DNA from: an uncultured Syntrophaceae bacterium
GTDB lineage: Bacteria > Desulfobacterota > BSN033 > UBA1163
Length of the DNA: 32,000 nt
Assembly (NCBI GenBank): GCA_964570075.1
Contig: CAZMWF010000029.1
Span: forward strand, 3,290 to 35,289
Direction of reading: 5' to 3'
This document shows positions 2,065 to 23,155 of this stretch, in pieces (within the stretch, counting starts at the first letter, position 1; the number at the start of each line of letters is the position of its first letter). The translations under genes were made by a program, and so were the position numbers. Below the pieces are notes generated by a model, which saw only the letters and a list, made by a program, of their open reading frames with translations, was not told the DNA's origin and did not search any database.

Positions 2065-2131
2065 CCTCTTTTCCTATCCTCTTCTTTCTAAATTCACTCC
2101 ACCTCCCTCTCTCTTCAATGAAAGGGAAAGG

Positions 2132-2683: not shown

Positions 2684-2722
2684 CGCCGTCGTTCACCCTT
2701 CTGATAGGATTTCATAGGAACG

Positions 2723-5592: not shown

Positions 5593-5784
5593 CCCTCCTC
5601 CCTACTTACTCCACCTCTCTCCCGAACCCTCTCAGAGCATCCGTAAACAATTTAACTTTTGAACGTCCCCATTCGAAGGGTTTGGAACCTTACTTCCCCA
5701 ATCTTCCAAGGACTTTTTCAAAGGTCCCATCTTAAGAATTAGGAGTTGGTAAAAAAAGTCCTGATATCTTAAAATGATTCAAAC

Positions 5785-6846: not shown

Positions 6847-6872
6847 GAAATGCTCTTTAAATCTTAAATGGT

Positions 6873-6908
6873 AAAAAATAAAAAAGCAGGGAACCCTCAA
6901 AACCCTGC
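6873..6908 (-). terminator. Rho-independent terminator for the 78-aa gene
   Basis: The minus strand forms a GCAGGG...CCCTGC stem (6886-6891 pairing with 6903-6908). It is followed by TTTTTTATTTTTT, the plus-strand A-run at 6873-6885. Confidence 0.6.
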
Positions 6909-6937
6909 CCTCGCCATTTTAAATCTAAATTGAAATT

Positions 6938-7174
6938 TTAATTTTGATTAAATGAGGATTGGTCAAGTTTTAAAATATCCCCAGAATCTTCATCGATTCT
7001 TACTTTGATATAATAAACCTCTTCCCCATTGATACTTCTTCCTAAAATACTCTCCACCCAATGCATAATCGATTTTTCAGTAATTCTCGATGAATCTTTT
7101 CTTCGTTCGGGAAGGATTCCAATGAGCCTGTCCCCTTTTACGGGGTCACGAATATAAAATTCATAAGCTATCAT
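6938..7174 (-). CDS. Hypothetical small protein (78 aa)
   Basis: The ORF has its own downstream terminator. I recognise no motif in it. Confidence 0.45.
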   Translation of the reverse strand: MIAYEFYIRDPVKGDRLIGILPERRKDSSRITEKSIMHWVESILGRSINGEEVYYIKVRIDEDSGDILKLDQSSFNQN

Positions 7175-7609
7175 AGCTAACCTTCTTTATTAAAAAATAA
7201 AAAAATCCTATTTTAATATAGCAAAAATAATGCCATTTCCCAATAAAAGAGGCGATAAGTTCATTTGGTAATTAATTATCTAATTTTATTTGTTTTTTTC
7301 TCTTATTTTTCTCTAAAAAATTTTTTTTAAAAACTTTTAATCATTTAAAGTTTGTAAAGAAATCTGACAGTAACACATATAAAAAAATATATTTTTAAAA
7401 AACAAATCAAAATAATTTGAAATAACAAATAGTTAAAAAGCTTCCCAATAAATCTATGTGCTTCGAAAAAAAGTGTAAAATTTTCCGACAGCCTTTCACT
7501 CACCCAAGCTTCTCGATCTCAATCTCTTAAGAGAATGATCTTGAACTATAAAACTGGATTCTTTTATAAATCGACATTAATATTATCAAAAAGGCCAAAA
7601 ATTAAAGGG

Positions 7610-8443
7610 ATGAAGAAACGTCCAAAAGACTATTATGAGATTCTTGGGGTGAGCCGAAATTCAACTCCTCAGGAGATCAAGGAGGCCTACCGCAAACTTG
7701 CCTTTCGTTACCATCCAGACCGAAATAAAGAAAATCCTAATGCGGTAGAAATGATGAAGGAAATTAATGAGGCCTATGCCGTCCTTTCTGATCCCAAAAA
7801 GAGAAGAGACTATGACCTCCTAAAGGAACAGTATGGTTCTTATGGTTATGAGCGATTCAGACAGAGCTATTCGGAGGAGGATATTTTTAAAGACTCAGAT
7901 ATCTTCCAGATTTTTGAGGAAATGGCCAGGAATTTTGGATTGAGAGGATTTGAAGAGATCTTCCGGAAGTTCAATGGAAAGGGATATCGAAGTTTTGAAA
8001 TCCGAAGACCAGGATTTTTCGGAAGAGGATTTATCTTTTTCGGTAGTGGCTTTGGAGAAGGAAGAGCACGAGAAATCCCGATTTCTTCTGGAATCCTCCC
8101 CGGACTTATGGGGAAATTCCTTCGTTATATTTTGAGGAAAACCTTTGGGTTGAAAGAACCCATTAGGGGAAAAGACATCGAAGGGGTTATCTTTCTCACA
8201 CCCCAACAGGCTATGGAAGGGGGGAAGGGTAAATTTTTCCATCGTAAGAGAGCAAAAGAACTTATTATCACCATTCCTCCTGGGGTCAAGGAGGGTCAAA
8301 AAATTAGACTAAAAGGAATGGGAGAAGAAGGAAGAAATGGAGGAGAGAGTGGAGATCTCTATCTTAAAGTCAAAATCAAGAAGCCCCTCCTTCAAAGATT
8401 AAAAGATCTTTTACATTTTTATAGGTCAACCCTTTCGCTTTAG
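7610..8443 (+). CDS. J-domain co-chaperone (CbpA/DnaJ-like, no zinc-finger region)
   Basis: The J domain reads DYYEILGV...[17 protein letters not shown]-rich stretch ([15 protein letters not shown]) follows, then a DnaJ C-terminal-type segment ([15 protein letters not shown]...IRLKGMGE...[10 protein letters not shown]). The ORF also opens at 7535, but the homologous part begins at ATG 7610. Confidence 0.8.
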
Positions 8444-8623
8444 GACATCCTCGAGGAGTTCCCCTCCTACTCCAACCTCCTCCGGAGTGGACTCTCTTAA
8501 ATAGATTACAAAAGCAGATTTCTCTATTCCTGTGAGCCTGCTTGCCGTCTCAGTAAACGCTCTGATCATCTCCTTTCTTTTCTCCTTTTCCAGTTTTGGA
8601 CCATAAAAAAATAGGGTTGGCAT
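8426..8623 (-). CDS. 4-oxalocrotonate tautomerase-family protein
   Basis: Length is 65 aa. It has an N-terminal Met-Pro (catalytic Pro1 type), the expected beta-alpha-beta length, and a strong RBS (GGGAGGAG). Confidence 0.65.
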
Positions 8624-8646
8624 AACTCCTCCCTTGATTATAACGA

Positions 8647-8688
8647 GACAGGTTACGGTTACCCAAAGGAAGGGAACCGTAACCTGTC
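8647..8688 (-). terminator. Strong hairpin directly after the katG stop (probable terminator)
   Basis: GACAGGTTACGGTT (8647-8660) pairs perfectly with AACCGTAACCTGTC (8675-8688). A further CCC/GGG extension is possible. The trailing T-tract is weak. Confidence 0.5.
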
Positions 8689-8700
8689 CTCATTCCCTAT

Positions 8701-10893
<2,193 letters not shown>

Positions 10894-10965
10894 TTACATT
10901 TTTTCTTATTAATACTTGTAATCAAACCCTTCCCATGCTAAACTTTAATCAGACATCCAACGAAA

Positions 10966-10988
10966 TAATAATTATTACTAATTAGTAA
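10966..10988. promoter_or_regulatory. Two overlapping perfect AT-rich palindromes (Fur/PerR-box-like operator)
   Basis: TAATAATTATTA lies at 10966-10977 and TTACTAATTAGTAA at 10975-10988. They sit in the katG / Fur-family divergent spacer, 10 nt upstream of the regulator ATG. Confidence 0.5.
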
Positions 10989-10997
10989 AATATCAAA

Positions 10998-11441
10998 ATG
11001 AAAAAGTCAATGGGAGAGAGAAATGTGAATGAGTTGGTAAAGAAATGCAAAGCCTCTGGCTTAAAAATTACACCCCAACGGGTGGCTATCTATAAGGAAG
11101 TCTTACATTCCTCGGAGCATCCTTCTGCCGAATCCATTTATAAAGCGGTAAAGGGGACACATCCTAACATCTCGTTTGATACGGTGAATAGGACCCTTCT
11201 CACTTTCGCAGAAATAGGCCTCATCCAAATTGTTGAAGGGTCTGGGGATGTAAGAAGATTTGATCCAAATACCGACCGACACCATCATTTTCGTTGTATG
11301 GAATGTGGCGCCATTATCGACTTTGACCATAAAAAATACGATCATTTAGACATTCCCAAAGAAATACAAGAAAAATTCATTGTAAAAAAGATCGCCGTGG
11401 TCATAGAAGGAATTTGTCATCGGTGCCGGAAGGGTCTGTGA
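10998..11441 (+). CDS. Fur-family metalloregulator (PerR-like by context)
   Basis: The winged-helix segment reads ITPQRVAIYKEVL...HPSAESIY. The metal-binding motifs are DRHHHFRCMECG and CHRC. It is divergent from katG. Confidence 0.85.
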   Translation: MKKSMGERNVNELVKKCKASGLKITPQRVAIYKEVLHSSEHPSAESIYKAVKGTHPNISFDTVNRTLLTFAEIGLIQIVEGSGDVRRFDPNTDRHHHFRCMECGAIIDFDHKKYDHLDIPKEIQEKFIVKKIAVVIEGICHRCRKGL

Positions 11442-11445
11442 TTTT

Positions 11446-12777
11446 TCATAGCGGATTCTCAACGGGCGTTTGGTCCCATTTCTTGAAATATCTTTCGGCT
11501 TTTTTGACGGCCTGCCAGAGGCCAAAATTCATCGGGCCAAAGATGATCAGACTTCGATTGAAATGGAAGGGATGGAAGAGTCGTTTAAACATGGAAGGGA
11601 TGGAATAGAAAGACCGATTCACCTTCCAAAAACCCTCCTGGAGTTCTTCCCGAGTCATTCGTTTGGGCCGAAAGACCACGGTGGCCATATCATACTTCGA
11701 CCAATCCTCGGTAAGAATCCTTCCCTCTTCTTTTAATCGTTTATAAATTCGTGTTCCGGGAAAAGGGGTAAGGACGGGAAGGAAGGCTCCTTCGATCCTG
11801 TTCCGTTCGGCAAACTCCAAAAACTCATCAAAAACGGTTGGGTCATCATAGTCGTAACCAAAAACGAAAGACCCATAGACTCCAATCCCAGATTCGTGAA
11901 GTCTTCGTATGGCTTCTTCATAGTTCTTGATTCGATTCATCCTCTTACCCATAAGGCGAAGATTCTCTTCCCTTAAGCTTTCAAATCCAATAAAAAGGCC
12001 ATGACATCCAGCTTTGGCAAGAAGAGAAAGGATCTCTTCGTTTTCCGAAATATGGATGGGTCCCTGACTCACCCATCGTAATCGATAATGGGAAAGCATG
12101 GTGAGAAGGGCTTTGGCATAGGCGAGATTCCCCACAATATTGTCATCCACAAAGAAGATATAGGCCTTCGAATGCTCCAGGGACTGAATCTCTTTTTCCA
12201 CCTCTTCGATTGGTCTCATCCGATAGGTCTTTCCGTGAAGAGCCGTCACAGAACAGAATTCACAATCATAAGGACACCCTCGTGTGGTTTGAATCAAATT
12301 ATGGAAGAGATAACCTTTCCGGGGCAGAAGATCTCTTCTTGGAATGGGAAGTCGTGCGAGGTTCGTTCTTTCTTCTTGACGATAGAAAGGTTTTAGTTCT
12401 CCTTTTTGAGCATCCCTGAGAATCTGGGGCCAGGTTTCATCAGCCTCTCCAATCGCGACGGCATCGGCATGAGCCTTGGCCTCCTGGGGAAGCCAGGTGG
12501 CATGAATCCCTCCGATCACCACCTTCGCCCCCCTTTCCCTAAATCGATCTCCAATCTCATAAGCCCTTCGGGCCAGAGGAGTGATGGCCGTGATGGCCAC
12601 TAAATCGATTTCCTCCTCGAAATCGATTTCGGAGAGACTTTCATCGATAATTTTTACCTCGTGGGGAGAAGGGGTGAGACTGGCCAGCAAGGAAGTGGAG
12701 AGGAGAGGAAATTTAAAGGCGATCACGTCCCAGAAACTCTCTTTAGGCCATCGTGGAACAATAAGGGCAACTTTCAT
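11446..12777 (-). CDS. B12-binding-domain radical SAM protein (class B)
   Basis: The N-terminal cobalamin-type domain reads DLVAITAIT...GAKVVIGGIHAT. The radical SAM motif is TTRGCPYDCEFCSV. Its start overlaps the upstream stop (ATGA). Confidence 0.85.
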   Translation of the reverse strand: MKVALIVPRWPKESFWDVIAFKFPLLSTSLLASLTPSPHEVKIIDESLSEIDFEEEIDLVAITAITPLARRAYEIGDRFRERGAKVVIGGIHATWLPQEAKAHADAVAIGEADETWPQILRDAQKGELKPFYRQEERTNLARLPIPRRDLLPRKGYLFHNLIQTTRGCPYDCEFCSVTALHGKTYRMRPIEEVEKEIQSLEHSKAYIFFVDDNIVGNLAYAKALLTMLSHYRLRWVSQGPIHISENEEILSLLAKAGCHGLFIGFESLREENLRLMGKRMNRIKNYEEAIRRLHESGIGVYGSFVFGYDYDDPTVFDEFLEFAERNRIEGAFLPVLTPFPGTRIYKRLKEEGRILTEDWSKYDMATVVFRPKRMTREELQEGFWKVNRSFYSIPSMFKRLFHPFHFNRSLIIFGPMNFGLWQAVKKAERYFKKWDQTPVENPL

Positions 12778-13382
12778 CTCCTCTTTCCTTTGATCAATCT
12801 CTCAATGGAACGAACCTCCACTCCTTCTGGGATGACCCATTGGAAGGCGTTTTCTGAAAGCAAAGGGTTCAGAACGACCTCTTTTAACCTCAGCTCTATA
12901 CGGGTCTCCTTCTCAGGCCATTCAATCCAGATTCGATCAGGAATCTCTCCATGCCCGGCCTTCTCGGAGGAGACCCGAATCTCTCCTGCCTTCTGAAGGA
13001 AATCCTCCAATCTTGAAATCTCTCCTCTATAGGCCTTTCTTTGTGAAGGAATCAGAAGGAAGAACTCTCCCTCTCGATAGAGGGCATCAAAAAGCCCCAT
13101 TCCTAAAAGATGATAACCAAGGAGCCGGAGTTTATCGGGTTTTTGATAGAGGAGGAAACCGTTGAGAATCCAATTCATCTCCTCTCCATCCCGGATAGTA
13201 TTAATTCGAATGGAAGTCCTTGCCTGTAGCGTTTCGACGGAAGAAAAGTGCTCTAAGAATTGATAAAGGGGGTTTACAAAAGGAGGCTTCTCCGGAATCC
13301 TCTCCACTTTTTTTGGACATCCCCAGAGGAGAAGAGAAGCGATGAAAAGCCAGAAGACAGAAAAATAGATTTTAGGGCCCAT
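12774..13382 (-). CDS. Lipoprotein, LolB/DUF4292-like fold candidate
   Basis: A signal peptide ends in the lipobox-like LLLWGC. The body pattern (QARTSIRI...LLYQKPDKLRLLGY...GEFFLLIP) resembles LolA/LolB-fold proteins. Confidence 0.6.
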   Translation of the reverse strand: MGPKIYFSVFWLFIASLLLWGCPKKVERIPEKPPFVNPLYQFLEHFSSVETLQARTSIRINTIRDGEEMNWILNGFLLYQKPDKLRLLGYHLLGMGLFDALYREGEFFLLIPSQRKAYRGEISRLEDFLQKAGEIRVSSEKAGHGEIPDRIWIEWPEKETRIELRLKEVVLNPLLSENAFQWVIPEGVEVRSIERLIKGKRR

Positions 13383-13383
13383 C

Positions 13384-14874
13384 TCAAAATTCTCCTCTCT
13401 CGAATTTTTCTAAAATCCTATTCGCAGTGAACTCCCCGGAGGCAACGACCCCCGCAATCCCTCCTCCTGGAGAGGTCCAGTGCCCAGAAAGAAAGAGATT
13501 CTCAAAGGGAGTGTTTCTCGATAGCCGATAGATCCCGGATTGATTGGGGATCAACGCCCATCCATAAGCGGCTCCCCATCGATTTCGAGTCCATTGCTCA
13601 ATGGTTTTAGGAGTCGTCTCTGCCTGGGTAAGAATTCTCTTCTTTAGATCAGGAATAAGTAAGGAGGCCTTTGTGATAAGATACTGAGAGAGCCGCTCCT
13701 GGAGTCCTTGATCCCAATTGGAATCAAGATGATAAGGAACTTTGAGGCTAAGGCAAAGCGTGCTTTTTCCTTTTGGTGAGTGGGATGGATTGACTTTCGA
13801 AGGGGCAAGAAGATAGTAAGAGGGATTTTCAGAAATCCGATTTTGATAGAGAAACTGATAGTCCCTTGAAAGTTGAGAATCGAAAAAGATCTCGTTATTC
13901 GATACAGGCAACTCCTCTAACTCTCCGTCTATTCCCAAATAAAGAATAAAATAAGAAAAAGAAGGCCTCATCCCTTTCAGTTTTGAAAGAAAACCGCTTG
14001 GAAGCCGATCCTCACCAACAAGGTGAAGGAAGGTATGAGAGGCATCGATGTTTGAAACAATCGCTCTTGCAGAAATTTCCTCCCCACCTTTGCATCTTAT
14101 CCCGATGGCCTTCCTATCCGAGAAAAGAATTCGATCGACCTCCTGTTCTTTAAGAATCTTTCCTCCATTCTGAAGGAAGGCCTTTTCTAATAGGAGAGGG
14201 AACCTCTCCACCTTTCCCTCGATACAGGAGACTCCGTAACGAAAATAAGACATCTCTATACCCGCCATTCCTATCACCGAGATCTCCTCTGGTGGGAGGA
14301 GACCATAAGAGGTGCGAACCGAGAGCAGGGTCTTGAGGAAGGGATGGGAAATATTTTCATCCAACAAATCCTGATAGGTTTTCCACTTATATTTCGAGAG
14401 GGTGGGAAAACGAAGAGAAAAGGATGAAGGGTCGAACCAGTCCACGGAAGAAGGAATCTCAGAAAACTCCCTGTAAATCTCATCCAAAGTTCGATAAACG
14501 GCTTCAATCCCCTTTCTCTCATCGGGAAATAGTCTGGAGAGGTTCTCGATATGACTCTCGAGGTTGGAAGATTGAAGGACCCTCTGTTCGGGAAAATAAT
14601 ACTCCCTTGCCGGCTCAAGCGGGATGAATTGAATCTGATCTAAAAGATCCAATCTCTCCAAGAGTTTCCAGACCCTTCCTCCTCTCTGGCATTCCCCCAA
14701 AGATTGAACGGAAAGATCGAAGGAAAAACCCTCCTTTTCAAAAGAGGAACAACATCCTCCAACTTTTTTATTTTTTTCCACCATTAAAATTTTTAGTCCC
14801 TTCTGACTGAGGAGAGAACCACAAGTAAGTCCACCCACTCCAGCGCCAATAATAATGACATCGAACTCACTCAT
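13384..14874 (-). CDS. Phytoene-desaturase-family (CrtI-like) FAD-dependent oxidoreductase
   Basis: The N-terminus is FDVIIIGAGVGGLTCGSLLSQKGLKILMVEKNKKVGG. The C-terminus is HWTSPGGGIAGVVASG. Length is 496 aa. Confidence 0.85.
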   Translation of the reverse strand: MSEFDVIIIGAGVGGLTCGSLLSQKGLKILMVEKNKKVGGCCSSFEKEGFSFDLSVQSLGECQRGGRVWKLLERLDLLDQIQFIPLEPAREYYFPEQRVLQSSNLESHIENLSRLFPDERKGIEAVYRTLDEIYREFSEIPSSVDWFDPSSFSLRFPTLSKYKWKTYQDLLDENISHPFLKTLLSVRTSYGLLPPEEISVIGMAGIEMSYFRYGVSCIEGKVERFPLLLEKAFLQNGGKILKEQEVDRILFSDRKAIGIRCKGGEEISARAIVSNIDASHTFLHLVGEDRLPSGFLSKLKGMRPSFSYFILYLGIDGELEELPVSNNEIFFDSQLSRDYQFLYQNRISENPSYYLLAPSKVNPSHSPKGKSTLCLSLKVPYHLDSNWDQGLQERLSQYLITKASLLIPDLKKRILTQAETTPKTIEQWTRNRWGAAYGWALIPNQSGIYRLSRNTPFENLFLSGHWTSPGGGIAGVVASGEFTANRILEKFERGEF

Positions 14875-14932
14875 CCGAAAATGAATATAACACCCCTCTC
14901 TTTTTGAGTCGACTAAAAATCCATTTCAGAGA

Positions 14933-14966
14933 TAATCCCTCACTCAGATGGGTAATAAACCCGAGA
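14933..14966 (+). repeat. Intergenic repeat, copy A
   Basis: The sequence is TAATCCCTCACTCAGATGGGTAATAAACCCGAGA. It shares the TAATCC...GGGnAATAA..CCCGAGA core with the copies at 20868, 21130 (reverse) and 23104. Confidence 0.7.
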
Positions 14967-14971
14967 TTCAA

Positions 14972-16219
14972 TTAGAGAACCTCACTCTGAGACCACGATT
15001 TAAACCAGAGAGAGAGGTTCGAACCTCCGTTTGAACATCCGTTGAGCAAGGCAGATCGAATCTCCCTCTTCTGCGGTTTTTCCAAGATGACGTTTAATCC
15101 GCATAGCGGGTCAAGATCCACGGTCCCGACAGTCGGAGGAATGATTTGGTGAAAAAGGGTTAAGGCCAGGGCACAGGCCCTTAGTCCTCCAGCGCCATCA
15201 AATTCTCCGATCATCGATTTAAGGCTACTGATGGAGATCCCTTTTATTCTCTCCCCAAACACATTCTGGATCGCAAGGCTTTCGGCACGGTCAAGCTCAG
15301 GGGTGGAGTTGGCTGCTGCAGAGATATAATCCACCAGTTCAAGATCATTCGTTGCCAGGAACATCGCTCTGGCTATTGCCTCTCCTTTAAGATCATATCG
15401 AAGAACTCCATCTGTACTGCCTGAACCACCTACTCCACAAATTTCTCCGTAAATCCTTGCCCCCCTCTGCTTCGCATGATCCAATCTTTCAAGGACAAGG
15501 ATTCCCCCACCTTCCCCCAGGACTATCCCATTTCTCTTTCGGTCGAAGGGTCTCATCCCTTCCTCCCCTTCTCCCCTCCCAGGGGAAAGGACCCCCAATC
15601 TGGAGTAAACGTGATAAAGGGGTTCGCTCAATTCATCCCCTCCCCCTGCGAACATAATATCAACCCTTCCCTTTTTGAGCTGTTGATAGGCGAAGGCTAT
15701 AGCCATCTCCGAAGAGACCTCTTTATGAGAGAAGGTAAGGTTGACCCCTCTGATCCCAAATTCGATGGCACAATGACTGGTGATAGCATTGGGAACGGCA
15801 GTCTGAAATAGAAGGGGCTGAGCTCCTGTTGGTCCTTCCTTGAGCAGGGATCGAAAGAATAGATCGACCGTATTCGAACTTCCGAGCCCTGTACCGATAG
15901 CAATCCCTATCCGATTTGGATCTTCTCTGGACAGATCCATTCCCGAATCCTCAAGGGCCAACTTCACGGCTGAAACCATGATCTTTCCAATTCGGTCCAT
16001 CCTTCTGAGATTGGAGGGTCTGATCCACTGCTTAAAATCAATCTCTGGAAGTTCAGCCCCTAATTGAGAGCGGTAGGGGCTTGTCTCAAATCGTTGAATG
16101 GGTTTAATCCCAGAAATCCCCGAGAGACAATTCCTCCAGAACTCTTCTCGACCAATTCCGACAGAAGAGACGATCCCTAAACCGGTAATGAGGACACGTT
16201 CATCCTCTTTACCTATCAT
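14972..16219 (-). CDS. Ketosynthase-fold protein lacking the catalytic triad (chain-length-factor-like partner)
   Basis: It aligns by eye to the adjacent KS. TVCSSS becomes HKEVSS (Cys to Glu). INAHGTAT becomes ISAAANST (His to Ala). MIGHCLG becomes MIGEFDG (His to Glu). Its start overlaps the KS stop (ATGA). Confidence 0.85.
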   Translation of the reverse strand: MIGKEDERVLITGLGIVSSVGIGREEFWRNCLSGISGIKPIQRFETSPYRSQLGAELPEIDFKQWIRPSNLRRMDRIGKIMVSAVKLALEDSGMDLSREDPNRIGIAIGTGLGSSNTVDLFFRSLLKEGPTGAQPLLFQTAVPNAITSHCAIEFGIRGVNLTFSHKEVSSEMAIAFAYQQLKKGRVDIMFAGGGDELSEPLYHVYSRLGVLSPGRGEGEEGMRPFDRKRNGIVLGEGGGILVLERLDHAKQRGARIYGEICGVGGSGSTDGVLRYDLKGEAIARAMFLATNDLELVDYISAAANSTPELDRAESLAIQNVFGERIKGISISSLKSMIGEFDGAGGLRACALALTLFHQIIPPTVGTVDLDPLCGLNVILEKPQKREIRSALLNGCSNGGSNLSLWFKSWSQSEVL

Positions 16220-17454
16220 CTGAAACTCCTCTTCCCATTCGAAATATATTTCCCAAATACCAGGCAGGCATTGTTCCCCCCAAAGGCAAAGGAGTTTGAG
16301 AGGGCGATCCGGACCTCCCTTTTAATGGATTGATTCGGCACATAGTTCAAATCGCAAAGAGGATCGGGTACCTCATAATGAATCGTAGGAGGAATGACTC
16401 CCTTCTCTATGGTCAACACCGTCGCCACGGCTTCAATTCCTCCAGCAGACCCTAAACAATGACCTATCATGGATTTGATCCCGCTGATGGGAATCTCCTT
16501 TGCCCTCTCTCCAAATACTCTCTTAATTCCTCGGGTCTCCGAGATGTCATTGAAAGGGGTGGCCGTGCCATGAGCATTGATCGTATCCACTTCTTCTGGA
16601 GAGAGACCCGCATGGGCTAAGGCCGATCGGATCACTCGCTCTACCCCTTCCCCATTGGGTTCTGGAGCAGTCAGGTGATACGCATCGGCACAGATTCCAT
16701 AGCCCAGCAGTTCTGCTCGAATTGGTGCTCCTCTTCTTAACGCATGCCCCAATTCTTCGAGGATCAAGATCCCTGCCCCTTCTCCGAGGATAAGCCCTTT
16801 TCTCCTTTTATCAAAAGGCTTACAGCTTTCAGGGTCGATCAATTTTAAACTATTGAATCCACTGAAGGAGACCTCACAGAGGGAATCGCTTCCCCCAGTC
16901 ACCATCACCTCTGCCAAACCCATCTGAATCATCTCGTAGGCCACTCCGATGGAGACGGAGCTCGAGGAACAGACGGTTGCGGTCGTATTTCTGGGCCCTT
17001 TTAACCCTGCCTCGATCGCAATCAGATCGGTAGTGGTCGCGAGAGAATAAGAGACAAGAAGGGAGGGGGAAGCCCTTTTTCGCCCCGAATAGAGATCTCT
17101 AAAATACCTCTCCATAGAGAGGATTCCTCCCGACCCTGCCCCGAGGAGCACACCCACCCTCTCTTTCTCTACAGGATCTCTATCCAGTCGACCATCCTTC
17201 CATGCCTCTCGGAAGGCAATCAATCCAAATTGATCGCATCGGGAAAGTCGTCGAAGTTCCCTCTTTGAAAAATGAGAGCCCAGATCTAAACCGGAAATCT
17301 CGGCAGCCCTTTTATTAGAGTAAGGAGAGGCATCAAAAACTGTAATCTCTTTTGTCCCATCCTTTCCCGAGATGAGAGATTCCCAGAACTGATAGACATG
17401 AGTTCCAATCGCACTGACCACTCCCAGACCTGTCACCACAACCCGTCTTCTCAT
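16216..17454 (-). CDS. Beta-ketoacyl synthase (FabF/KS-alpha-like) with an intact Cys-His-His triad
   Basis: Motifs ATVCSSSS, DAYHLTAP, NAHGTATPFND and KSMIGHCLGSAGG are all present. Confidence 0.9.
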   Translation of the reverse strand: MRRRVVVTGLGVVSAIGTHVYQFWESLISGKDGTKEITVFDASPYSNKRAAEISGLDLGSHFSKRELRRLSRCDQFGLIAFREAWKDGRLDRDPVEKERVGVLLGAGSGGILSMERYFRDLYSGRKRASPSLLVSYSLATTTDLIAIEAGLKGPRNTTATVCSSSSVSIGVAYEMIQMGLAEVMVTGGSDSLCEVSFSGFNSLKLIDPESCKPFDKRRKGLILGEGAGILILEELGHALRRGAPIRAELLGYGICADAYHLTAPEPNGEGVERVIRSALAHAGLSPEEVDTINAHGTATPFNDISETRGIKRVFGERAKEIPISGIKSMIGHCLGSAGGIEAVATVLTIEKGVIPPTIHYEVPDPLCDLNYVPNQSIKREVRIALSNSFAFGGNNACLVFGKYISNGKRSFR

Positions 17455-18095
17455 TGGACCTCTTTAATCTTTAAATCCTGTGGAAGGGAGACCTGGAAAT
17501 CAGACTCGGTGAGTCCTGAATTGACTCGAATGTTGGAAAAACGAAGGGTCGTGGTATCTCCGTTTCGTTCAACCAATTCCATCCCAATAATCATTCCTTC
17601 TTTTTTCGAAATCCAGAGCTTCGTCTTCACCAAAAGGGCTCCCTTCTCTTTGGGGAGAATCTCTATGACCGAGTAAGATCCATGATCTTCAATGATTTTC
17701 CACTGAGCCAACCTCTCATCAAAAGGATCTTTCGAGAAGAAGAGATATCTCTCTACCAGAGGATGGCCCTCGAGAGAGTATCGTTCTGCTGTCTTCTCTT
17801 CTTTGAAATAGATCAACAGGGTTTTCCCCTGAAGGAGCATCGTGATTCCTTCTGGAGAGAAGAATTCGATGAGGAGTCGGTCAGGTTTTTTGAACCGAAT
17901 CTTTCCTTTGGCAACGAGCTTTTCCCTGAGTAATGAGATCCTCTTCTCCTGGAGGAGATCCGCAGAGAAATCCTTCACTCTTTCCTGGGCCTCCCTTAAT
18001 CGTTGAATCACGACCCTTTCCTGAATCGAAAAGGTATCCCAGGGAAGGATAAGGATGGAAAAAAGAATAAGAAAAGAAAGAATGACAAACCTCAT
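17451..18095 (-). CDS. LolA-like periplasmic lipoprotein/lipid carrier family protein
   Basis: It has a signal peptide without a Cys. The LolA-type pattern reads FSADLLQEKRISLLREKLVAKGKIRFKKPDRLLIEF...GKTLLIY. It has 4-nt overlaps with both neighbouring genes. Confidence 0.75.
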   Translation of the reverse strand: MRFVILSFLILFSILILPWDTFSIQERVVIQRLREAQERVKDFSADLLQEKRISLLREKLVAKGKIRFKKPDRLLIEFFSPEGITMLLQGKTLLIYFKEEKTAERYSLEGHPLVERYLFFSKDPFDERLAQWKIIEDHGSYSVIEILPKEKGALLVKTKLWISKKEGMIIGMELVERNGDTTTLRFSNIRVNSGLTESDFQVSLPQDLKIKEVQ

Positions 18096-18952
18096 GGTCT
18101 CTCTCCTTTGAATGCCAGAAGGGTTTTACTCACTCCTGGAAGAAGGAAGTGTCTTCCGCTGAGGTAGAATACTCCTTCAGAGAGAGAACCAAAAAAAATA
18201 GAGGCCAATCGTTTCCCCAACGGTTTTGGGAGGGTGTAGCCCCCGATAAGATGCTGAACTCCGTGAAACCCAACTTTCTCGAGGGCCCCCTGGAGCAGTT
18301 TAGGGGAAAAATCCGAAAGATGGGAAGGCAGATCATAGAGTCTGTTTTCAATCCCGAAGAATCGAAGAAGGGTCTTGATAGGAGTCGTATGAGGATATCT
18401 CAAAAACAAGAGTCCATCCGGTTTGAGAAGCGTGTAACATTTCCTTAGAAACTTCATGGGCTCTGGGAGGTGTTCAATGACATAAAAGCCACTGATCACA
18501 TCAAATTCTTCTTCCCCGAGGGAAAGCGTTTCAAAAGGACCGGAATAGATGGTTAACCCCAATACCTCTCTGGCATAGGTGACGGCCTTCTCGGAAATCT
18601 CTACCCCAAAGACCTCCCATCCCCTTTGTCTCATCTCTTCGAGGAAGAAGCCAAAACCCGTTCCTACATCCAGCAATCTCCCTCTTTCTCTATATTTCAG
18701 GATGAGTTGGGCGGCTCGGGTAAATACGGGTTTCATCATTTTTCGCCAGGCCTCTCTCTCTTCCTCCCCCTCAGGGAAATAACGCTGGTAATGATCATAG
18801 AGGAAATCCATAATGGGTCTTGGATTGGCAAAGATAAATTTACAGTTCGAGCATCTTACCATCTGATAAGGATCTTCTCGATAGAGAGGCGAGTTTCTTC
18901 GTTCCCCACAGAGAGGGCAATTAATAACCACCATTTCGACTTTTATATCCAT
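18092..18952 (-). CDS. Class I SAM-dependent methyltransferase with an N-terminal Zn-ribbon
   Basis: The Zn-ribbon is CPLCGE...CSNCKF. The SAM motif is LLDVGTGFGFFLEEM. The longest ORF begins with TTG at 18982; I prefer ATG 18952, and ATG 18934 is also possible. Confidence 0.8.
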   Translation of the reverse strand: MDIKVEMVVINCPLCGERRNSPLYREDPYQMVRCSNCKFIFANPRPIMDFLYDHYQRYFPEGEEEREAWRKMMKPVFTRAAQLILKYRERGRLLDVGTGFGFFLEEMRQRGWEVFGVEISEKAVTYAREVLGLTIYSGPFETLSLGEEEFDVISGFYVIEHLPEPMKFLRKCYTLLKPDGLLFLRYPHTTPIKTLLRFFGIENRLYDLPSHLSDFSPKLLQGALEKVGFHGVQHLIGGYTLPKPLGKRLASIFFGSLSEGVFYLSGRHFLLPGVSKTLLAFKGERP

Positions 18953-19619
18953 ATTCCCTCTTCGACTCGATCCACATCTCAATGGTCCGGGTGGAGAGAG
19001 ACCATCCTTTTAATCGGGATGCCTCTAAGAATCTTCTGGACTCTTCTATGGTATAAGAAGAATAAACCGATTCCAGAAACCCATTTTTTGCCTTCGGATG
19101 CTTGACGAAGAGTTTCCAAAAAAAATTAAGAATTCCGATCAGCCGAGGGGAGGTATCTCTATGGAAGTCCACGATCACAAATACTCCCTCCTCCTTCAGG
19201 GTTCTGGCCACTTCGTTGAAAAAGACAACGGGATCGTCCAGATGATGAAGGGTATTGATACAGAGAAGGAGATCAAGGGATTGATCCTCACAGGGTAAGG
19301 CATAAGCAGAGCCAATCTCAAACCGAATCTTTCCAGCCAGTCCTTCCTCCCGGGCATTCTTCTGGGCCATCTCTATCATGGTAGGAGAGAGATCGATCCC
19401 CTTAAATTCAAGATCCGGAAGGGCTCGAGAGAGAAAGATCGGAAAGATTCCCGGTCCTGTCCCTACATCTAAGGCTTTTCCTCGACGAATCCCTTGCGCC
19501 TTGATCCTTTGAAGAACCCTTTGGCAAGGAATCTTCATATACTTCTTTGCCATGAGCGAATAGTACTCTGCCAGCTCCCGATCATCGATGATTCCTGGTT
19601 CTGCCACCCTGGACTTCAT
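18921..19619 (-). CDS. Class I SAM-dependent methyltransferase (UbiE/Methyltransf_11-like)
   Basis: Motifs ALDVGTGPGIFPIFL and LDLLLCINTLHHLDDP are present. ATG 19617-19619 lies 1 nt after the thiolase stop and has GAGG upstream. The longer GTG-initiated ORF (to 19697) would overlap the thiolase by 77 nt. Confidence 0.8.
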   Translation of the reverse strand: MKSRVAEPGIIDDRELAEYYSLMAKKYMKIPCQRVLQRIKAQGIRRGKALDVGTGPGIFPIFLSRALPDLEFKGIDLSPTMIEMAQKNAREEGLAGKIRFEIGSAYALPCEDQSLDLLLCINTLHHLDDPVVFFNEVARTLKEEGVFVIVDFHRDTSPRLIGILNFFWKLFVKHPKAKNGFLESVYSSYTIEESRRFLEASRLKGWSLSTRTIEMWIESKREYGYKSRNGGY

Positions 19620-19620
19620 C

Positions 19621-20844
19621 TCAACCTCGATCCACCTGAACAATGGCTCCTTCCCCCTGGGCGAGTCCCCCGCAGATCGAGGCCACTCCCATTCCACCCC
19701 CTCTTCTTCTCAACTCATAGATCATCGTCATCAGGATCCTTCCTCCACTGGCTCCTACAGGATGGCCAATGGCAATTGCTCCTCCATTGACATTGATCTT
19801 CTCTAAAATCCCTTTCATCCTCTCCGGATCCCCATTCGAAAGAATCTTGGCGCTGACCAGGGGCATGGCAGCAAAGGCTTCATTGATCTCGATAAGGTCG
19901 ATTTGGTCAAGGGAGAGATTGACTTTTTTTAAGACCTTCTGGATGGTGAAACCTGGGATAGCCGCAATGAGCCTTGGATCCGTGGCAGTGGGAATCATGG
20001 AGACGATTTTTGCCAAGGGCTTAAGTCCCTTCTCTTCTGCCTTCCTTCGACTCATGATGAGAATGGCTGCAGCACCGGTATCGAGTCCGGGCGCATTTCC
20101 AGCGGTTACGGTGGGGCTTCCATAAACCGTAGGAAGTCTGGCGAGTTTTTCAAGAGTCGTATCTGGCTTTGGAAATTCGTCCTTTTCAAGAATAATGGGA
20201 GGCCCCTTCTTTTGAGGAATCTCGACCCGCATCAACTCCTCTCCGATCTTAAATTTTCCCTCCTGCCAGGCCTTTACATACTTCATCTGACTCTCATAAG
20301 CCCATCGATCCTGATCCTCCCGAGTGACTCCATATTCGAGGGCCACTTCTCCTGCGTCGACAGAGACAGGATTAAATCCTTTATATCCCAGTTCATAGAG
20401 ACCATCCCATATCTGAATATTTCCCAATCTTTTCCCCCACCGCACATCCGGAGGAATGACATAGGGAGTTCTACTCATGTTATCGGAACCCACCGCTAAA
20501 GCCACATCAATTTCACCGCTTCGGATCGCACGATACCCGAATCGAAGAGCAGCCAGAGAAGAACAGCAAGCCCGATCCAGGGTAATTGAAATGGACTCCC
20601 CCGGCATCCCTGCTTTGAGGGTGGCTTGTCTTGCGGGAACATCCGTCTCCAGGGCTGCCTCCCCAATAACGGCTGTTCCGTAATAGGTTTCTTCCACCTC
20701 ATCCCCTCTCAGGCCCACCCTTTGAAGGACTTCCCGAATCACCATCGCCCCCAACTCTATGGATGGAATGTCCTTTAAGACCCCTCCAAACTTCCCAAAG
20801 GGGGTTCGAACTGCACTCACCACCCAAACCTCCTGCTCCCTCAT
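19621..20844 (-). CDS. Thiolase (acetyl-CoA C-acyl/acetyltransferase family)
   Basis: Motifs AVRTPFGKFGG, LDRACCSSL (nucleophile region), NVNGGAIAIGHPVGASG and ICGGLAQG are present. An RBS (GGAGGAGG) lies upstream. Confidence 0.9.
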   Translation of the reverse strand: MREQEVWVVSAVRTPFGKFGGVLKDIPSIELGAMVIREVLQRVGLRGDEVEETYYGTAVIGEAALETDVPARQATLKAGMPGESISITLDRACCSSLAALRFGYRAIRSGEIDVALAVGSDNMSRTPYVIPPDVRWGKRLGNIQIWDGLYELGYKGFNPVSVDAGEVALEYGVTREDQDRWAYESQMKYVKAWQEGKFKIGEELMRVEIPQKKGPPIILEKDEFPKPDTTLEKLARLPTVYGSPTVTAGNAPGLDTGAAAILIMSRRKAEEKGLKPLAKIVSMIPTATDPRLIAAIPGFTIQKVLKKVNLSLDQIDLIEINEAFAAMPLVSAKILSNGDPERMKGILEKINVNGGAIAIGHPVGASGGRILMTMIYELRRRGGGMGVASICGGLAQGEGAIVQVDRG

Positions 20845-20867
20845 AACCTCCTCCTTTATAAATCTCG

Positions 20868-20944
20868 TAACCCCTCACGGAAGGGTGGAAATAAATTTAA
20901 GCCCGAGGGGGTATTGGAGAAACCCATTCCGCCAGAGGCGGATC
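20868..20944 (+). repeat. Intergenic repeat, copy B (left arm of the inverted pair)
   Basis: The sequence is TAACCCCTCACGGAAGGGTGGAAATAAATTTAAGCCCGAGGGGGTATTGGAGAAACCCATTCCGCCAGAGGCGGATC. Confidence 0.75.
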
Positions 20945-21062
20945 CGACTCGGTCGGAGGTGCGGCTACCTTAAATGGTCCATAGAAATTGTCACCTTGGT
21001 TTGTTTTAATCAGAAACCCATTTCTACAATGGATCGATTCGTATTCCTTAAACATATAATTT

Positions 21063-21130
21063 GATCCGCATTCTATGGGTTTCGGAAATACTCCTCTCGG
21101 GCTTATCCCCCAATTCTGAGTGAGGGATTA
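21063..21130 (-). repeat. Intergenic repeat, copy C (right arm, inverted)
   Basis: The reverse complement reads TAATCCCTCACTCAGAATTGGGGGATAAGCCCGAGAGGAGTATTTCCGAAACCCATAGAATGCGGATC. It is colinear with copy B along its whole length. Confidence 0.75.
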
Positions 21131-21151
21131 CTAAATCTCTATTTTTAAGGA

Positions 21152-21180
21152 TTGACAGTTTTTACATTTAGATATAAATT
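21152..21180 (+). promoter_or_regulatory. Candidate sigma70 promoter for the 180-aa secreted-protein gene
   Basis: TTGACA lies at 21152-21157. It is followed after 15-17 nt by overlapping TATAAA/ATAAAT/TAAATT hexamers. The site is about 45 nt upstream of the ATG. Confidence 0.5.
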
Positions 21181-21224
21181 CTAATCAACATCCTTTCAAT
21201 CCCTTTATCCTCGAAAGGGAAACG

Positions 21225-21767
21225 ATGAAAAAAGTCTTCCCAAGAATCATCCTCTTGGTTGGAATGATCCTCTTCCCCCTCAACCCCCTCTTACCCTCCA
21301 ACCTTCCTTCCTCCGACGATAAAATTCTAATCGATTCAGGAATCGATCCTTGGGTTCCAAATCCTTTGGTGGGGGAACATAAATGGAAAAAATTCTTCAG
21401 TGACGAAAAATTCACCCTGTCTAAAAAAGCAGAGACTCTTTGGTATTATGATACAAAGACAGAGATGAAAGCAAAGGGTGAAAAATTAAATCTAAAGGGT
21501 CAACCCTTATCCTTAGAGGGCGCTACCCTGGTATGGGTTAAATCGGTTGATTTAAAAAATCATAGAACCAGCTATCTCTTCTACGGCCTTTGGCCAGAGA
21601 AGAAGGCAGCCCTCTTCTTCGGAATTTTTGAAAACGAGGACAGAACAAAATCTATAGAAGAGATTGGGGAAATGGAGGAGATCCCCAAAATGGCTCCTGG
21701 GCTGGAAAGAGCAGTCCTTGAAAATCTCATCAACATAGTGTTTAAACCCTGGTGGAAGATCCTATAG
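21225..21767 (+). CDS. Hypothetical secreted protein (180 aa)
   Basis: It has an N-terminal hydrophobic signal-like segment (MKKVFPRIILLVGMILFPL), an RBS (AAGGGA) and a promoter. I recognise no family motif. Confidence 0.55.
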   Translation: MKKVFPRIILLVGMILFPLNPLLPSNLPSSDDKILIDSGIDPWVPNPLVGEHKWKKFFSDEKFTLSKKAETLWYYDTKTEMKAKGEKLNLKGQPLSLEGATLVWVKSVDLKNHRTSYLFYGLWPEKKAALFFGIFENEDRTKSIEEIGEMEEIPKMAPGLERAVLENLINIVFKPWWKIL

Positions 21768-23006
21768 ATCTCTTTCGAATATAGCCGCGATCCCCAATCC
21801 TCCGCCTCCGCAGATCGTCTCCAATCCGAAGCGAGCATTCCGCCTCCGCATCTCATGAAGCAATGTGACCAAGACCCTCGTCCCCGTACAGGCAATGGGA
21901 TGCCCCAAGGAAATTCCTGATCCATTTACATTGATCCGAGAATAATCTTTCTCTCCAAGCCCCATCACCTTTATATCGGCCAGCACCTGAGCAGCGAAGG
22001 CCTCCTGAATCTCGATCAAATCCATCTGCTCAAGCCTAAGATTCGCCTTCTTTAACACCTGAGCGACCGCTTTCGGAACCGTCTTGTAAGTCCTTCTCGG
22101 ATCATCTCCTACCACCGAGAAGGCTACGAGTTTCGCCAGAGGCTCAATCCCAAGCTCTCGGGCTTTTTCCCTTGAAACCACCACCACAGCCGCCGCCCCG
22201 TCATTCTCAGAGGACGAATTCCCAGCCGTACAGACGCCTCCCAAAATCGGCTTAAGCTCGGAGAGCTTCTCCAAGGTCGTTTCTGGCCTCGGTCCCTCAT
22301 CCCGATCAACCAGGGCAAAATCCTTCTCGCCTTTCGGAATTCGAACCGCCACGATCTCCTCCTTAAATCGACCTTCCTCCATCGCCCGACAGGCCTTTTG
22401 ATGACTTCCAAGAGCCCAGAGATCGCACTCCATCCGGGAAATACCCTCCTCCTTGGCCGCGGTCTCAGCCCAGGACATCATCGCCGGTAAAACCCCATAG
22501 CGCTCGATCGGCTGAGACATCACCCTCGCCCTCTGAATCCGATCATAAAGAGGAATTCCCCAGAGGGAGAGATCCCCATGCCCCTTGGGCATCCCTCTTT
22601 TGCCCCCTATCCCCCATTTAATCTCCCCAGGAAGATAAAATTCTGCATGGCTCATACTCTCCACTCCACCCGCTACCACCACCTCCGCATTCCCAGACTG
22701 AATCTCCATTGCTGCAAAACAGACCACATCCAGACCCGTGCAACATCGCCGATCCAATGTAATACCAGGAATCGACTCTGGCCACCCCGCCTTCAGCAGG
22801 GCCATCCGGGCAATATTCACGTATTCCCCGCTCTGATAGGATTGACCCAAAATCACCTCATCCACATCTCCAGGACTGATCCCTGCTCTCTTAACCACTT
22901 CATTCAAAACAAAAACGGCTAAATCATAGGCAGGCACCTCTTTCAAAACTCCCATATATCTCCCTACCGGTGTCCTCACCGCACCAATCATCACGGCTTC
23001 TTTCAA
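21762..23006 (-). CDS. Thiolase family protein (paralogue of 19621-20844)
   Basis: Motifs AVRTPVGRYMG, LDRRCCTGL, NVNGSGISLGHPIACTG and ICGGGGLG are present. It uses a TTG start preceded by AAGGAGGAGG. Confidence 0.88.
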   Translation of the reverse strand: MKEAVMIGAVRTPVGRYMGVLKEVPAYDLAVFVLNEVVKRAGISPGDVDEVILGQSYQSGEYVNIARMALLKAGWPESIPGITLDRRCCTGLDVVCFAAMEIQSGNAEVVVAGGVESMSHAEFYLPGEIKWGIGGKRGMPKGHGDLSLWGIPLYDRIQRARVMSQPIERYGVLPAMMSWAETAAKEEGISRMECDLWALGSHQKACRAMEEGRFKEEIVAVRIPKGEKDFALVDRDEGPRPETTLEKLSELKPILGGVCTAGNSSSENDGAAAVVVVSREKARELGIEPLAKLVAFSVVGDDPRRTYKTVPKAVAQVLKKANLRLEQMDLIEIQEAFAAQVLADIKVMGLGEKDYSRINVNGSGISLGHPIACTGTRVLVTLLHEMRRRNARFGLETICGGGGLGIAAIFERDL

Positions 23007-23103: not shown

Positions 23104-23155
23104 TAATCCACCACCGAAGTGGGGAATAAACCCGAGAGGGGTATTGGGTCTGGTG
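23104..23155 (+). repeat. Intergenic repeat, copy D
   Basis: The sequence is TAATCCACCACCGAAGTGGGGAATAAACCCGAGAGGGGTATTGGGTCTGGTG. Confidence 0.7.

Follow-up and report, generated by a model that had tools for sequence, protein, structure and literature searches.

The 32,000-nucleotide (nt) window analyzed here (assembly GCA_964570075.1, contig CAZMWF010000029.1, positions 3,290 to 35,289 of the forward strand) comes from an uncultured Syntrophaceae bacterium (GTDB lineage Desulfobacterota; BSN033; UBA1163). Between positions 11446 and 20844, its minus strand carries nine head-to-tail genes. They encode a thiolase, two S-adenosylmethionine (SAM) methyltransferases (MT1 and MT2), a LolA-like carrier, a FabF-type ketosynthase (KS) with an intact catalytic triad, a second KS that has lost the triad (dead KS), a CrtI-like flavin oxidoreductase, a lipoprotein of predicted LolB fold, and a cobalamin (B12)-binding radical SAM enzyme (rSAM). 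On balance, sequence comparison favors the view that this locus is a dedicated side branch of the type II pathway of fatty acid synthesis (FAS-II) that makes a tailored acyl lipid. The KS, dead KS, CrtI-like and rSAM genes are collinear with Cluster I of anammox bacteria, and the two linked modules of the locus are co-conserved across Thermodesulfobacteriota.

Gene Organization and Conservation

An earlier note, made by a model from the letters of this DNA, described a nine-gene minus-strand array with four ATGA start/stop overlaps and two 1-nt gaps, and assigned a domain to each product. All nine open reading frames were confirmed at their limits (Table 1), and all six junctions proved correct on direct reading. 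ATGA overlaps join MT2 to LolA-like (18092/95), LolA-like to KS (17451/54), KS to dead KS (16216/19), and lipoprotein to rSAM (12774/77). One-base gaps (TGAGATG) separate thiolase from MT1 (19619/21) and CrtI-like from lipoprotein (13382/84). The overlap of MT1 and MT2 is 14 or 32 nt long, according to the ATG chosen as the MT2 start. The only real gap of the array is the spacer between the dead KS and CrtI-like genes, and a weak promoter-like site lies within it (14912-14884). Purine runs resembling Shine-Dalgarno sequences precede most starts. Promoter and terminator scans gave counts not above those of shuffled sequence and were uninformative, and Rfam and tRNA scans found nothing. Pfam and NCBIfam profile searches bore out every domain call, and none of the nine proteins reaches an NCBIfam equivalog cut-off.

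Conservation was assessed in about 25 related loci, all from metagenome-assembled genomes (MAGs) or metagenome contigs of Thermodesulfobacteriota, Syntrophaceae or Syntrophorhabdus, and cited here by handles such as L015. Among them were 20 related species-level genomes, all MAGs labelled Thermodesulfobacteriota, Deltaproteobacteria, Syntrophaceae or Syntrophorhabdus. Proteins identical to those of the window were found on metagenome contigs only. The CrtI-like, lipoprotein and rSAM genes are adjacent in that order in 13 of 20 loci anchored on the lipoprotein. Where such loci had enough upstream sequence, KS and dead KS lay upstream within 10 kb in eight of nine, and the same linkage held in three of the four loci for which the dead KS served as an independent anchor. 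The conserved core order is MT1, MT2, (LolA-like), KS, dead KS, an insertion hot spot, CrtI-like, lipoprotein, and rSAM. MT1 and MT2 lie upstream of KS throughout the related clusters. MT1 (67-74% identity) occurs upstream of MT2 in L015, L018, L022, and L026, and MT2 (59-65% identity) in L014, L015, L018, L022, L026, L027, L028, and L113. The best-conserved gene of the set is rSAM, with orthologues 76-83% identical, and the dead KS is represented in metagenomes by more than 120 90%-identity clusters at 71-83% identity.

The hot spot is the junction between dead KS and CrtI-like, where 0.1-9.6 kb of unrelated genes are found in L011, L014, L018, L019, L022, L027, L113, and L114. Among the inserts are genes for histidine kinases with PAS domains, FecR/DUF6600 proteins, NUDIX proteins, response regulators, and peptidases. 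L028 has its cluster divided at this junction. A fortuitous adjacency of unrelated genes in this lineage would agree with such separation of the halves (split in L028 or up to ~10 kb apart) and with the position of the thiolase, which is only a neighbor (see below). However, order and linkage are kept where the proteins are only 55-80% identical, four junctions are ATGA overlaps, and the genes are lost jointly in deletion variants. We find chance adjacency scarcely credible, and the core is co-conserved across many genomes.

Natural deletions of the cluster were found in two groups of relatives. L016 has the order acyl-CoA dehydrogenase, lipoprotein, LemA, and in the related L015 the entire cluster occupies positions between and behind these genes. 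L008 and L009, which are 82-91% identical to the window, have the order second thiolase (Thl2), a 180-aa protein (unk180), thiolase (Thl1), lipoprotein, and KatG. The deletion is clean in L008. In L009, short in-frame remnants of the LolA-like and rSAM genes surround an intact lipoprotein gene (positions 5613-6850 of that locus), which looks like a snapshot of recent cluster decay. The Fur-family gene next to the window cluster is gone in both. These deletions indicate that the cluster is dispensable.

Syntrophia-type relatives (L015, L022, L028, and L113) carry additional genes upstream that do not occur in the window (Table 1). They encode a FabZ/ApeI-like dehydratase, an Sm_multidrug_ex membrane protein (a small exporter), and a second dead KS, in which Phe stands in place of the Cys, as it does in Kuste2805. 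Some of these relatives also have an acyl-CoA dehydrogenase gene and a BchE-like B12-rSAM gene upstream. The dehydratase is restricted to L015, L018, L022, L028, and L113.

Ketosynthase Phylogeny

Ketosynthase phylogeny had been proposed as a check on the array, and it places the active KS outside the housekeeping FabF proteins. The KS passes the broad FabF subfamily model PRK07314, and its score against the equivalog model TIGR03150 (fabF) is 454.3 bits, below the cut-off of 493.75; the dead KS scores 318.5 bits. Neighbor-joining (NJ) trees with 200 bootstraps were built with a housekeeping reference of 22 FabFs linked to acpP plus E. coli FabF. The acpP-linked clade leaves the KS outside in 87.5% of bootstraps. 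Mean distance to this clade is 0.96 for the KS and 0.955 for amxFabF2, the anammox Cluster I enzyme, compared to 0.60 within the clade, and no acpP gene lies near the KS. The KS clade, the amxFabF2 group, and ApeO of the aryl polyene pathway have in common a 6-aa deletion, by which the KS lacks the canonical ...TRNDxPxxASRPFD... loop, and the motif PExxC(Q/K)PFDKxR(K/Q)G; neither occurs in 65 of 66 canonical FabFs. Housekeeping FabF identity is rejected by the TIGR03150 score, the clade exclusion, and the deletion. The best match of the KS in the PDB is 9s5h_B, which is amxFabF2. Its identity is 45% to Kuenenia FabF2, 38% to E. coli FabF, and 36% to ApeO.

In the dead KS, alignment to E. coli FabF shows Glu in place of Cys163, Gly in place of His303, and Ala in place of His340, and these replacements are invariant in orthologues. 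It groups with KS3, amxFabFmut (the anammox counterpart), and the dead KS of L035 in 100% of NJ bootstraps. By analogy with the anammox pair described below, the KS and dead KS may form a heterodimer that joins a KS with a chain-length factor (CLF)-like subunit.

Comparison With Anammox Cluster I

Cluster I of Kuenenia stuttgartiensis (KustE3603-3608) encodes an acyl carrier protein (ACP; amxACP), amxFabZ, amxFabF2, the triad-less amxFabFmut, a phytoene dehydrogenase homologue (PDH), and a cobalamin rSAM (bioRxiv 10.64898/2026.05.19.726425; PDB 9s5h/9s5i). It is the leading, unproven candidate for ladderane synthesis (Rattray 2009 PMC2649909; Javidpour 2016 PMC4790861; Granatino et al. 2026) and has been described as unique to ladderane producers (bioRxiv 10.64898/2026.05.19.726425). 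amxFabF2 and amxFabFmut associate as a KS/CLF-like heterodimer with malonyl-ACP-decarboxylating activity (Granatino et al. 2026, bioRxiv 10.64898/2026.05.19.726425). KustE3607 does not act as a phytoene desaturase.

We compared the window to a Brocadia-like contig (L030) and the complete Kuenenia cluster (L110). Both lineages have the order active FabF-type KS, full-length dead KS, CrtI-family oxidoreductase, and B12-rSAM, and in both an active KS is adjacent to a triad-less partner, to which it is ATGA-coupled in the window. Besides the KS, identities to Kuenenia proteins are 33% for the dead KS (FabFmut), 31% for the CrtI-like protein (PDH; 239 bits), and 33% for the rSAM (226 bits). Relatives of the window have a FabZ/ApeI-like dehydratase upstream, which in L015 is 40% identical to amxFabZ. 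The window KS carries the amxFabF2-type deletion, the dead KSs of both lineages cluster together, and the CrtI-like protein of neither meets the crtI_fam cut-off.

The CrtI-like protein scores 185 bits against crtI_fam (cut-off 238), all equivalogs are far under their cut-offs, identity to annotated CrtI is 26-27%, and no phytoene synthase is encoded within the window. Together, the score, the identity and the missing synthase rule out a carotenoid phytoene desaturase (CrtI/CrtD). Wherever it is present, the CrtI-like gene is directly upstream of the lipoprotein gene. The rSAM has the features of a class B radical SAM enzyme, with matches to PF02310 (34.7 bits, cut-off 32.1) and PF04055 (72.9 bits) and a CPYDCEFC motif. 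Its best NCBIfam match is BchE (107 bits, cut-off 481). Against TIGR04072 ("rSAM_ladder_B12"; cut-off 360) it scores 74.5 bits, and membership was rejected. The rSAM of Kuenenia Cluster I fails this model as well, with only 85 bits, so TIGR04072 describes a different anammox enzyme.

The differences are equally clear. Window-type clusters have no dedicated ACP gene nearby, and the window has no dehydratase gene. It adds two SAM methyltransferases and a LolA-like carrier, and the lipoprotein gene is inserted between the CrtI-like and rSAM genes. Glu takes the Cys position of the dead KS in the window, compared to Val or Thr in the anammox protein (triad Glu/Gly/Ala vs. Val/Thr and Asn/Glu/Cys). 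The rSAM and PDH proteins are not each other's nearest relatives, and the hosts are a Thermodesulfobacteriota lineage and an anammox planctomycete.

Four or five families in identical order ((FabZ-like) KS, dead KS, PDH, and B12-rSAM), the match of the KS to the solved amxFabF2 structure with the deletion in common, and the monophyly of the dead KSs in the NJ bootstraps could indicate that the locus is a true Cluster I orthologue with which a non-anammox bacterium makes a lipid that is ladderane-like or cyclised or strained in some other way. However, identities are only 31-45%, the dead-KS triads differ, relatives at least as close to the rSAM and CrtI-like proteins occur elsewhere, and the window lacks amxACP and has extra methyltransferase and Lol-like genes. 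In addition, ladderanes are reported from anammox bacteria only, and Cluster I has never been shown to make them. Orthology in this sense is very improbable, and the locus is better regarded as an architectural relative of Cluster I, possibly a distant homologue, than as a member of it. A broader possibility is that the four genes (amxFabF2-type KS, dead KS, CrtI-family, and cobalamin rSAM) are an ancient lipid-tailoring cassette inherited both by anammox bacteria and by an uncultured, widespread group within the Thermodesulfobacteriota, which we consider unlikely. The earlier note knew of no characterized system with this composition; the statement stands for the added genes, but the core of KS, dead KS, PDH homologue, and B12-rSAM follows the Cluster I order.

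On four metagenome contigs that are not from Brocadia (L034, L035, L037, and L038), the KSs share 47-54% identity with amxFabF2. Genes for a dead KS, a dehydratase, a KS, and an ACP precede a B12-rSAM or CrtI-like gene on these contigs, which suggests a wider family of Cluster-I-like cassettes beyond anammox bacteria.

Accessory Genes

The thiolase matches TIGR01930 (377 bits) and is probably co-transcribed with the cluster in the window. L008 and L009, which lack the cluster, still have it together with Thl2 and unk180, and a FabZ-like dehydratase takes its place upstream of MT1 in L015, L022, L028, and L113. Because relatives without the cluster keep the thiolase and distant relatives replace it with the dehydratase, we consider it a syntenic neighbor and not a cluster member, as it had been listed. 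In the window, two thiolase paralogues (19621-23006) surround the opposite-strand unk180 gene, whose product has a signal peptide and no family match, and this Thl1/unk180/Thl2 trio is conserved in L008 and L009.

MT1 matches the Methyltransf_11/25/31 families without reaching an equivalog. MT2 matches Methyltransf_23/11 and, weakly, CMAS (cyclopropane/mycolic-acid synthase). PDB searches with the methyltransferases returned generic relatives only.

The LolA-like protein matches PF03548 (60.6 bits). Its best NCBIfam match is NF053544 LolA2_flexi (76.4 bits, cut-off 125), and it scores 64.6 bits against TIGR00547 lolA (cut-off 112). Its gene is flanked on both sides by ATGA overlaps, is present in L014, L015, L019, L022, L026, and L028, and is deleted or fragmentary in L008 and L009. 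A canonical, indispensable LolA is rejected by the score below the TIGR00547 cut-off and by the loss of the gene with the cluster, or its absence from the cluster, in some relatives. The failure to reach the NF053544 cut-off likewise argues against identity with the flexirubin LolA2.

The 202-aa lipoprotein has 665 homologues and is predicted to have a LolA/LolB fold and to be LolB-like. Its AlphaFold2 model is of moderate quality (pLDDT 71), and its top Foldseek matches in the PDB are LolA/LolB (probability 1.0, with a TM score of ~0.5 at best). In cluster-less genomes the gene is located between an MFS transporter or acyl-CoA dehydrogenase gene and a LemA/DUF2207 pair. It may encode a general outer-membrane lipoprotein of the LolB-like type, in bacteria from which LolB is not known.

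These accessory genes bear on a reading in which the locus modifies bulk membrane fatty acids (e.g., by mid-chain methyl branching or anaerobic desaturation, in temperature or redox adaptation) and the Lol-like genes serve ordinary lipoprotein sorting. The weak CMAS match of MT2, the passing of PRK07314 by the KS, the occurrence of the rSAM family in many contexts, and a lipoprotein that acts as a resident gene kept without the cluster are consistent with this reading. On the other hand, the whole set is dispensable, being cleanly lost or decaying in the close relatives L008, L009, and L016. The KS does not group with the acpP-linked FabFs and has a dead partner, and the LolA-like protein scores under the LolA equivalog cut-off, its gene having been lost along with the cluster. 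We therefore regard bulk membrane modification as rather unlikely.

Comparison With Aryl Polyene and Flexirubin Clusters

Aryl polyene (APE) loci of E. coli carry ApeL, which is LolA-like, and ApeN, a LolB-like DUF3261 protein (PMC8253772), and flexirubin loci of Bacteroidota carry dedicated LolA2 and LolB2 (PMC11885536). The earlier note counted the LolB-fold lipoprotein among the additions that set the window apart from such clusters, a point that does not survive, since these loci also have a LolB-like gene. Its view that the locus resembles both aryl polyene and candidate ladderane clusters was supported by comparison to the ape locus and to Cluster I.

We compared the window protein by protein to the E. 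coli CFT073 locus apeA-R (L029; Cimermancic 2014; Grammbitter 2019; Johnston 2021 PMC8253772). Both are FAS-II-like and pair a KS with an inactive partner; each also has a SAM methyltransferase, along with proteins resembling LolA and, by predicted fold in the window, LolB. Overlapping genes are frequent in both, and the window KS has the ApeO-type loop deletion. Membership in the APE family was rejected because only the KSs match in this comparison, at 26-36% identity. In BLAST, the LolA-like protein has no similarity to ApeL, and the same was true of the lipoprotein, methyltransferases, and dehydratase when compared to ApeN, ApeB, ApeI, and ApeP. tblastn with most of the Ape proteins found nothing in the window or related loci. 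The inactive partners also differ, as ApeC is a short CLF of 240 aa and the dead KS of the window has 415 aa and no similarity to ApeC. APE loci encode two ACPs, a ketoreductase, and two dehydratases, besides an aryl-acid ligase, a thioesterase, an MMPL pump, and acyl- and glycosyltransferases. Pfam searches detected none of these in the window. CrtI-like and B12-rSAM genes do not occur in APE loci.

Flexirubin loci resemble the window in that a pair of LolA-like and LolB-like genes is embedded beside KS genes, and LolA2_flexi is the nearest NCBIfam family of the LolA-like protein. The score remains under the cut-off, no tyrosine ammonia-lyase (TAL), DarA/DarB, or ACP genes were seen in the window, the phylum is different, and the window-type LolB-like gene outlives its cluster.

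An aryl polyene or flexirubin-type pigment, i.e., a methylated conjugated polyene carried by Lol proteins to the outer membrane for protection against oxidative stress, would fit the ApeO-type deletion, the shared set of KS, CLF, methyltransferase, LolA-like and LolB-like genes, the LolA2_flexi match, and the dehydratase of the relatives, which matches the ApeI-like Pfam family. The locus also adjoins a Fur-family gene and katG. However, this neighborhood is confined to the closest relatives, the accessory proteins have no BLAST similarity to their Ape counterparts, and the dead KS is of full length. No ACPs, ketoreductase, aryl-starter ligase or ammonia-lyase, thioesterase, acyltransferases, or MMPL exporter were found, the LolA2_flexi score is too low, and the CrtI-like and B12-rSAM genes are foreign to APE clusters. 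A pigment of this type seems unlikely.

Uncharacterized FAS-II-like clusters that are syntenic with that of K. stuttgartiensis were noted in Desulfotalea psychrophila, Geobacter, and Pelobacter (Rattray 2009 PMC2649909). They belong to the same broad bacterial group as the window and contain FabF paralogues, of which some lack the catalytic Cys, together with phytoene-dehydrogenase-like, SAM, and radical SAM genes. By description only, they differ in having a phenylacetyl-CoA ligase-like gene, a glycosyltransferase, an MMPL-like protein, and a non-B12 radical SAM enzyme, and are more APE-like. We found no characterized cluster with this gene combination in the literature. Because similar clusters were noted by Rattray et al., the kind is known, although the present composition has not been described. 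The locus thus belongs to the aryl polyene/ladderane-like kind of FAS-II offshoots and is not a categorically new system.

Proposed Pathway

A dedicated FAS-II side branch for a tailored acyl lipid could operate as follows. The KS/dead-KS heterodimer would prime and/or extend an ACP-bound chain of defined length, with ACP, ketoreductase and, in this genome, dehydratase borrowed from elsewhere in the genome. The CrtI-family flavoenzyme would tailor the chain by C-C desaturation, isomerization, or saturation, and the cobalamin rSAM would tailor it further by methylation or rearrangement at an unactivated carbon. Methyl groups would be added by the two SAM methyltransferases. Where present, the LolA-like protein would ferry the hydrophobic product, either by itself or loaded on a lipoprotein, through the periplasm, and the LolB-fold lipoprotein may receive the product at the outer membrane. 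Every substrate, the order of the steps, and the envelope destination we infer from the families encoded. Overall, the junctions, the related loci, and the failure to reach any equivalog support the description of the array as a co-transcribed-looking, co-conserved, and uncharacterized lipid or polyketide-like set.

Several observations weigh against this reading. All carriers found are uncultured. No ketoreductase, enoyl reductase, thioesterase, acyltransferase, or large exporter gene was found in the window or related loci, and tblastn with E. coli AcpP and ApeE/F found no ACP gene in the window or the ~25 related loci. The window accordingly lacks ACP, ketoreductase, dehydratase, acyltransferase, and exporter genes, as had been noticed before, and of these the relatives supply the dehydratase and a small exporter. 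Because these genes are missing from the loci, the pathway depends on genes not seen here. The LolA-like gene does not occur in the cluster versions of L018, L027, and L113. The delivery to the outer membrane that was first proposed depends on this gene, and its absence there weakens the proposal. The LolA-like protein is an accessory member. The lipoprotein is kept without the cluster in L008, L009, L016, L020, L023, L024, and L025. Since it survives alone when all other cluster genes are lost, its role is probably not specific to the cluster, and the gene is more likely a resident that serves its own role than one dedicated to the pathway.

Other points concern the link to Cluster I. The KS joined the amxFabF2 group in only 2.5% of NJ bootstraps, and the monophyly of the dead KSs may reflect long-branch attraction. 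The CrtI-like protein is 29-30% identical to oxidoreductases linked to nonribosomal peptide synthetase (NRPS) genes in Bacillus; plasmid tblastn found these proteins as similar to it as anammox PDH, and true CrtI clearly further away. A specific kinship with anammox PDH, which had been expected, was not borne out. The rSAM family is very large (2,674 representatives at E<=1e-30). The anammox rSAM was expected to be the nearest relative of the window enzyme, but at least 150 50%-identity clusters are nearer, at 38-50% identity, and the two of these that were examined are both in unrelated gene contexts. Because the rSAM and CrtI-like proteins are equally near or nearer to relatives in other contexts, the homology of the components to Cluster I is not exclusive.

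Flanking Genes and Repeats

The genes flanking the cluster include those for an aldehyde:ferredoxin oxidoreductase, CCG/4Fe-4S proteins, KatG with a divergent Fur-family gene, the second thiolase, a nitroreductase, and an Opp transporter, and they fit an anaerobe such as Thermodesulfobacteriota. The aldehyde:ferredoxin oxidoreductase gene, with genes for a 4Fe-4S protein and a CCG-domain/4Fe-4S (HdrD-like) protein (910-4705), marks the host as a strict anaerobe. The katG gene and the divergently transcribed Fur-family (PerR-like) gene (8701-11441) adjoin the 3' end of the operon, where the Fur-family and rSAM genes converge, the end of the former lying 5 nt from the stop codon of the latter. 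The stretch from 6000 to 9000 has a low GC content (~37.5%, compared to ~47% elsewhere) and contains a DnaJ-domain gene (7535-8443) and little else that is recognizable; it may have been horizontally acquired.

A ~34-nt element (TAATCCCTCACTCAGATGGGTAATAAACCCGAGA) is located at 14933-14966, upstream of the CrtI-like gene, and a 79% identical copy is found at 23104-23137, upstream of Thl2. The 16-nt core (14933-14948) recurs exactly, in inverted orientation, at 21115-21130 between Thl1 and unk180. An operator shared by two sub-operons was rejected, because in L007, a relative 92-98% identical to the window, the element is absent from the same site and present elsewhere. The element is more probably a small dispersed repeat.

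Table 1. Features of the gene array in the window and the additional upstream module of Syntrophia-type relatives (coordinates of the window unless a related locus is named).
Feature	Coordinates	Strand	Description
Thiolase (Thl1)	19621-20844	-	Acetyl-CoA C-acyltransferase family; catalytic Cys/His/Cys present; Thiolase_N/C
MT1	18921-19619	-	Class I SAM methyltransferase, UbiE/COQ5-like; 232 aa from ATG at 19619
MT2	18092-18952	-	Class I SAM methyltransferase; N-terminal CxxC...CxxC zinc-ribbon-like segment; start ATG 18952 or 18934
LolA-like carrier	17451-18095	-	PF03548; signal peptide, no lipobox; predicted periplasmic; accessory member
Active FabF-type KS	16216-17454	-	Ketoacyl-synt N+C; Cys-His-His intact; amxFabF2/ApeO type
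Dead KS	14972-16219	-	Ketoacyl-synt N+C; full length, 415 aa; presumed CLF-like partner of KS
Intergenic gap, sub-operon boundary	14875-14971		97 nt; insertion hot spot in relatives
CrtI-like FAD oxidoreductase	13384-14874	-	Amino_oxidase/crtI_fam; phytoene-dehydrogenase homologue, not carotenoid enzyme
LolB-fold lipoprotein (predicted)	12774-13382	-	202 aa; lipobox LLLWGC; no Pfam match
rSAM	11446-12777	-	Class B radical SAM; B12-binding + Radical_SAM + DUF4070; CPYDCEFC; last gene of operon
Syntrophia-type extra upstream module, L015	102-3483		
Syntrophia-type extra upstream module, L028	1-4014		
Syntrophia-type extra upstream module, L113	517-2734		

Significance

The synthesis of ladderanes by anammox bacteria is a long-standing open question. 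To our knowledge, there is no genetic system for Cluster I, and it has never been reconstituted. Here, the core gene order of Cluster I is found in abundant non-anammox anaerobes of hot springs, deep lakes, peat, and the subsurface. The homology to the anammox genes is distant and not exclusive, and similar deltaproteobacterial clusters were noted in 2009. The locus cautions against taking a cassette of KS/dead KS, CrtI-like, and B12-rSAM genes as specific to ladderanes. It also draws attention to a lipoprotein of predicted LolB fold in a group for which no LolB is known, and it points to an unrecognized tailored lipid in Thermodesulfobacteriota. Sister genomes that have lost the cluster naturally offer a comparative handle on how the cassette acts on the fatty acyl chain.

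Should the cassette be shared and ancient, Cluster I would not be unique to ladderane producers. These deltaproteobacteria would then make a cyclised or methyl-rearranged fatty acid, or else the cassette would be a general step on which anammox bacteria build. In either case, the ladderane problem would gain a second, independent lineage with natural knock-outs.

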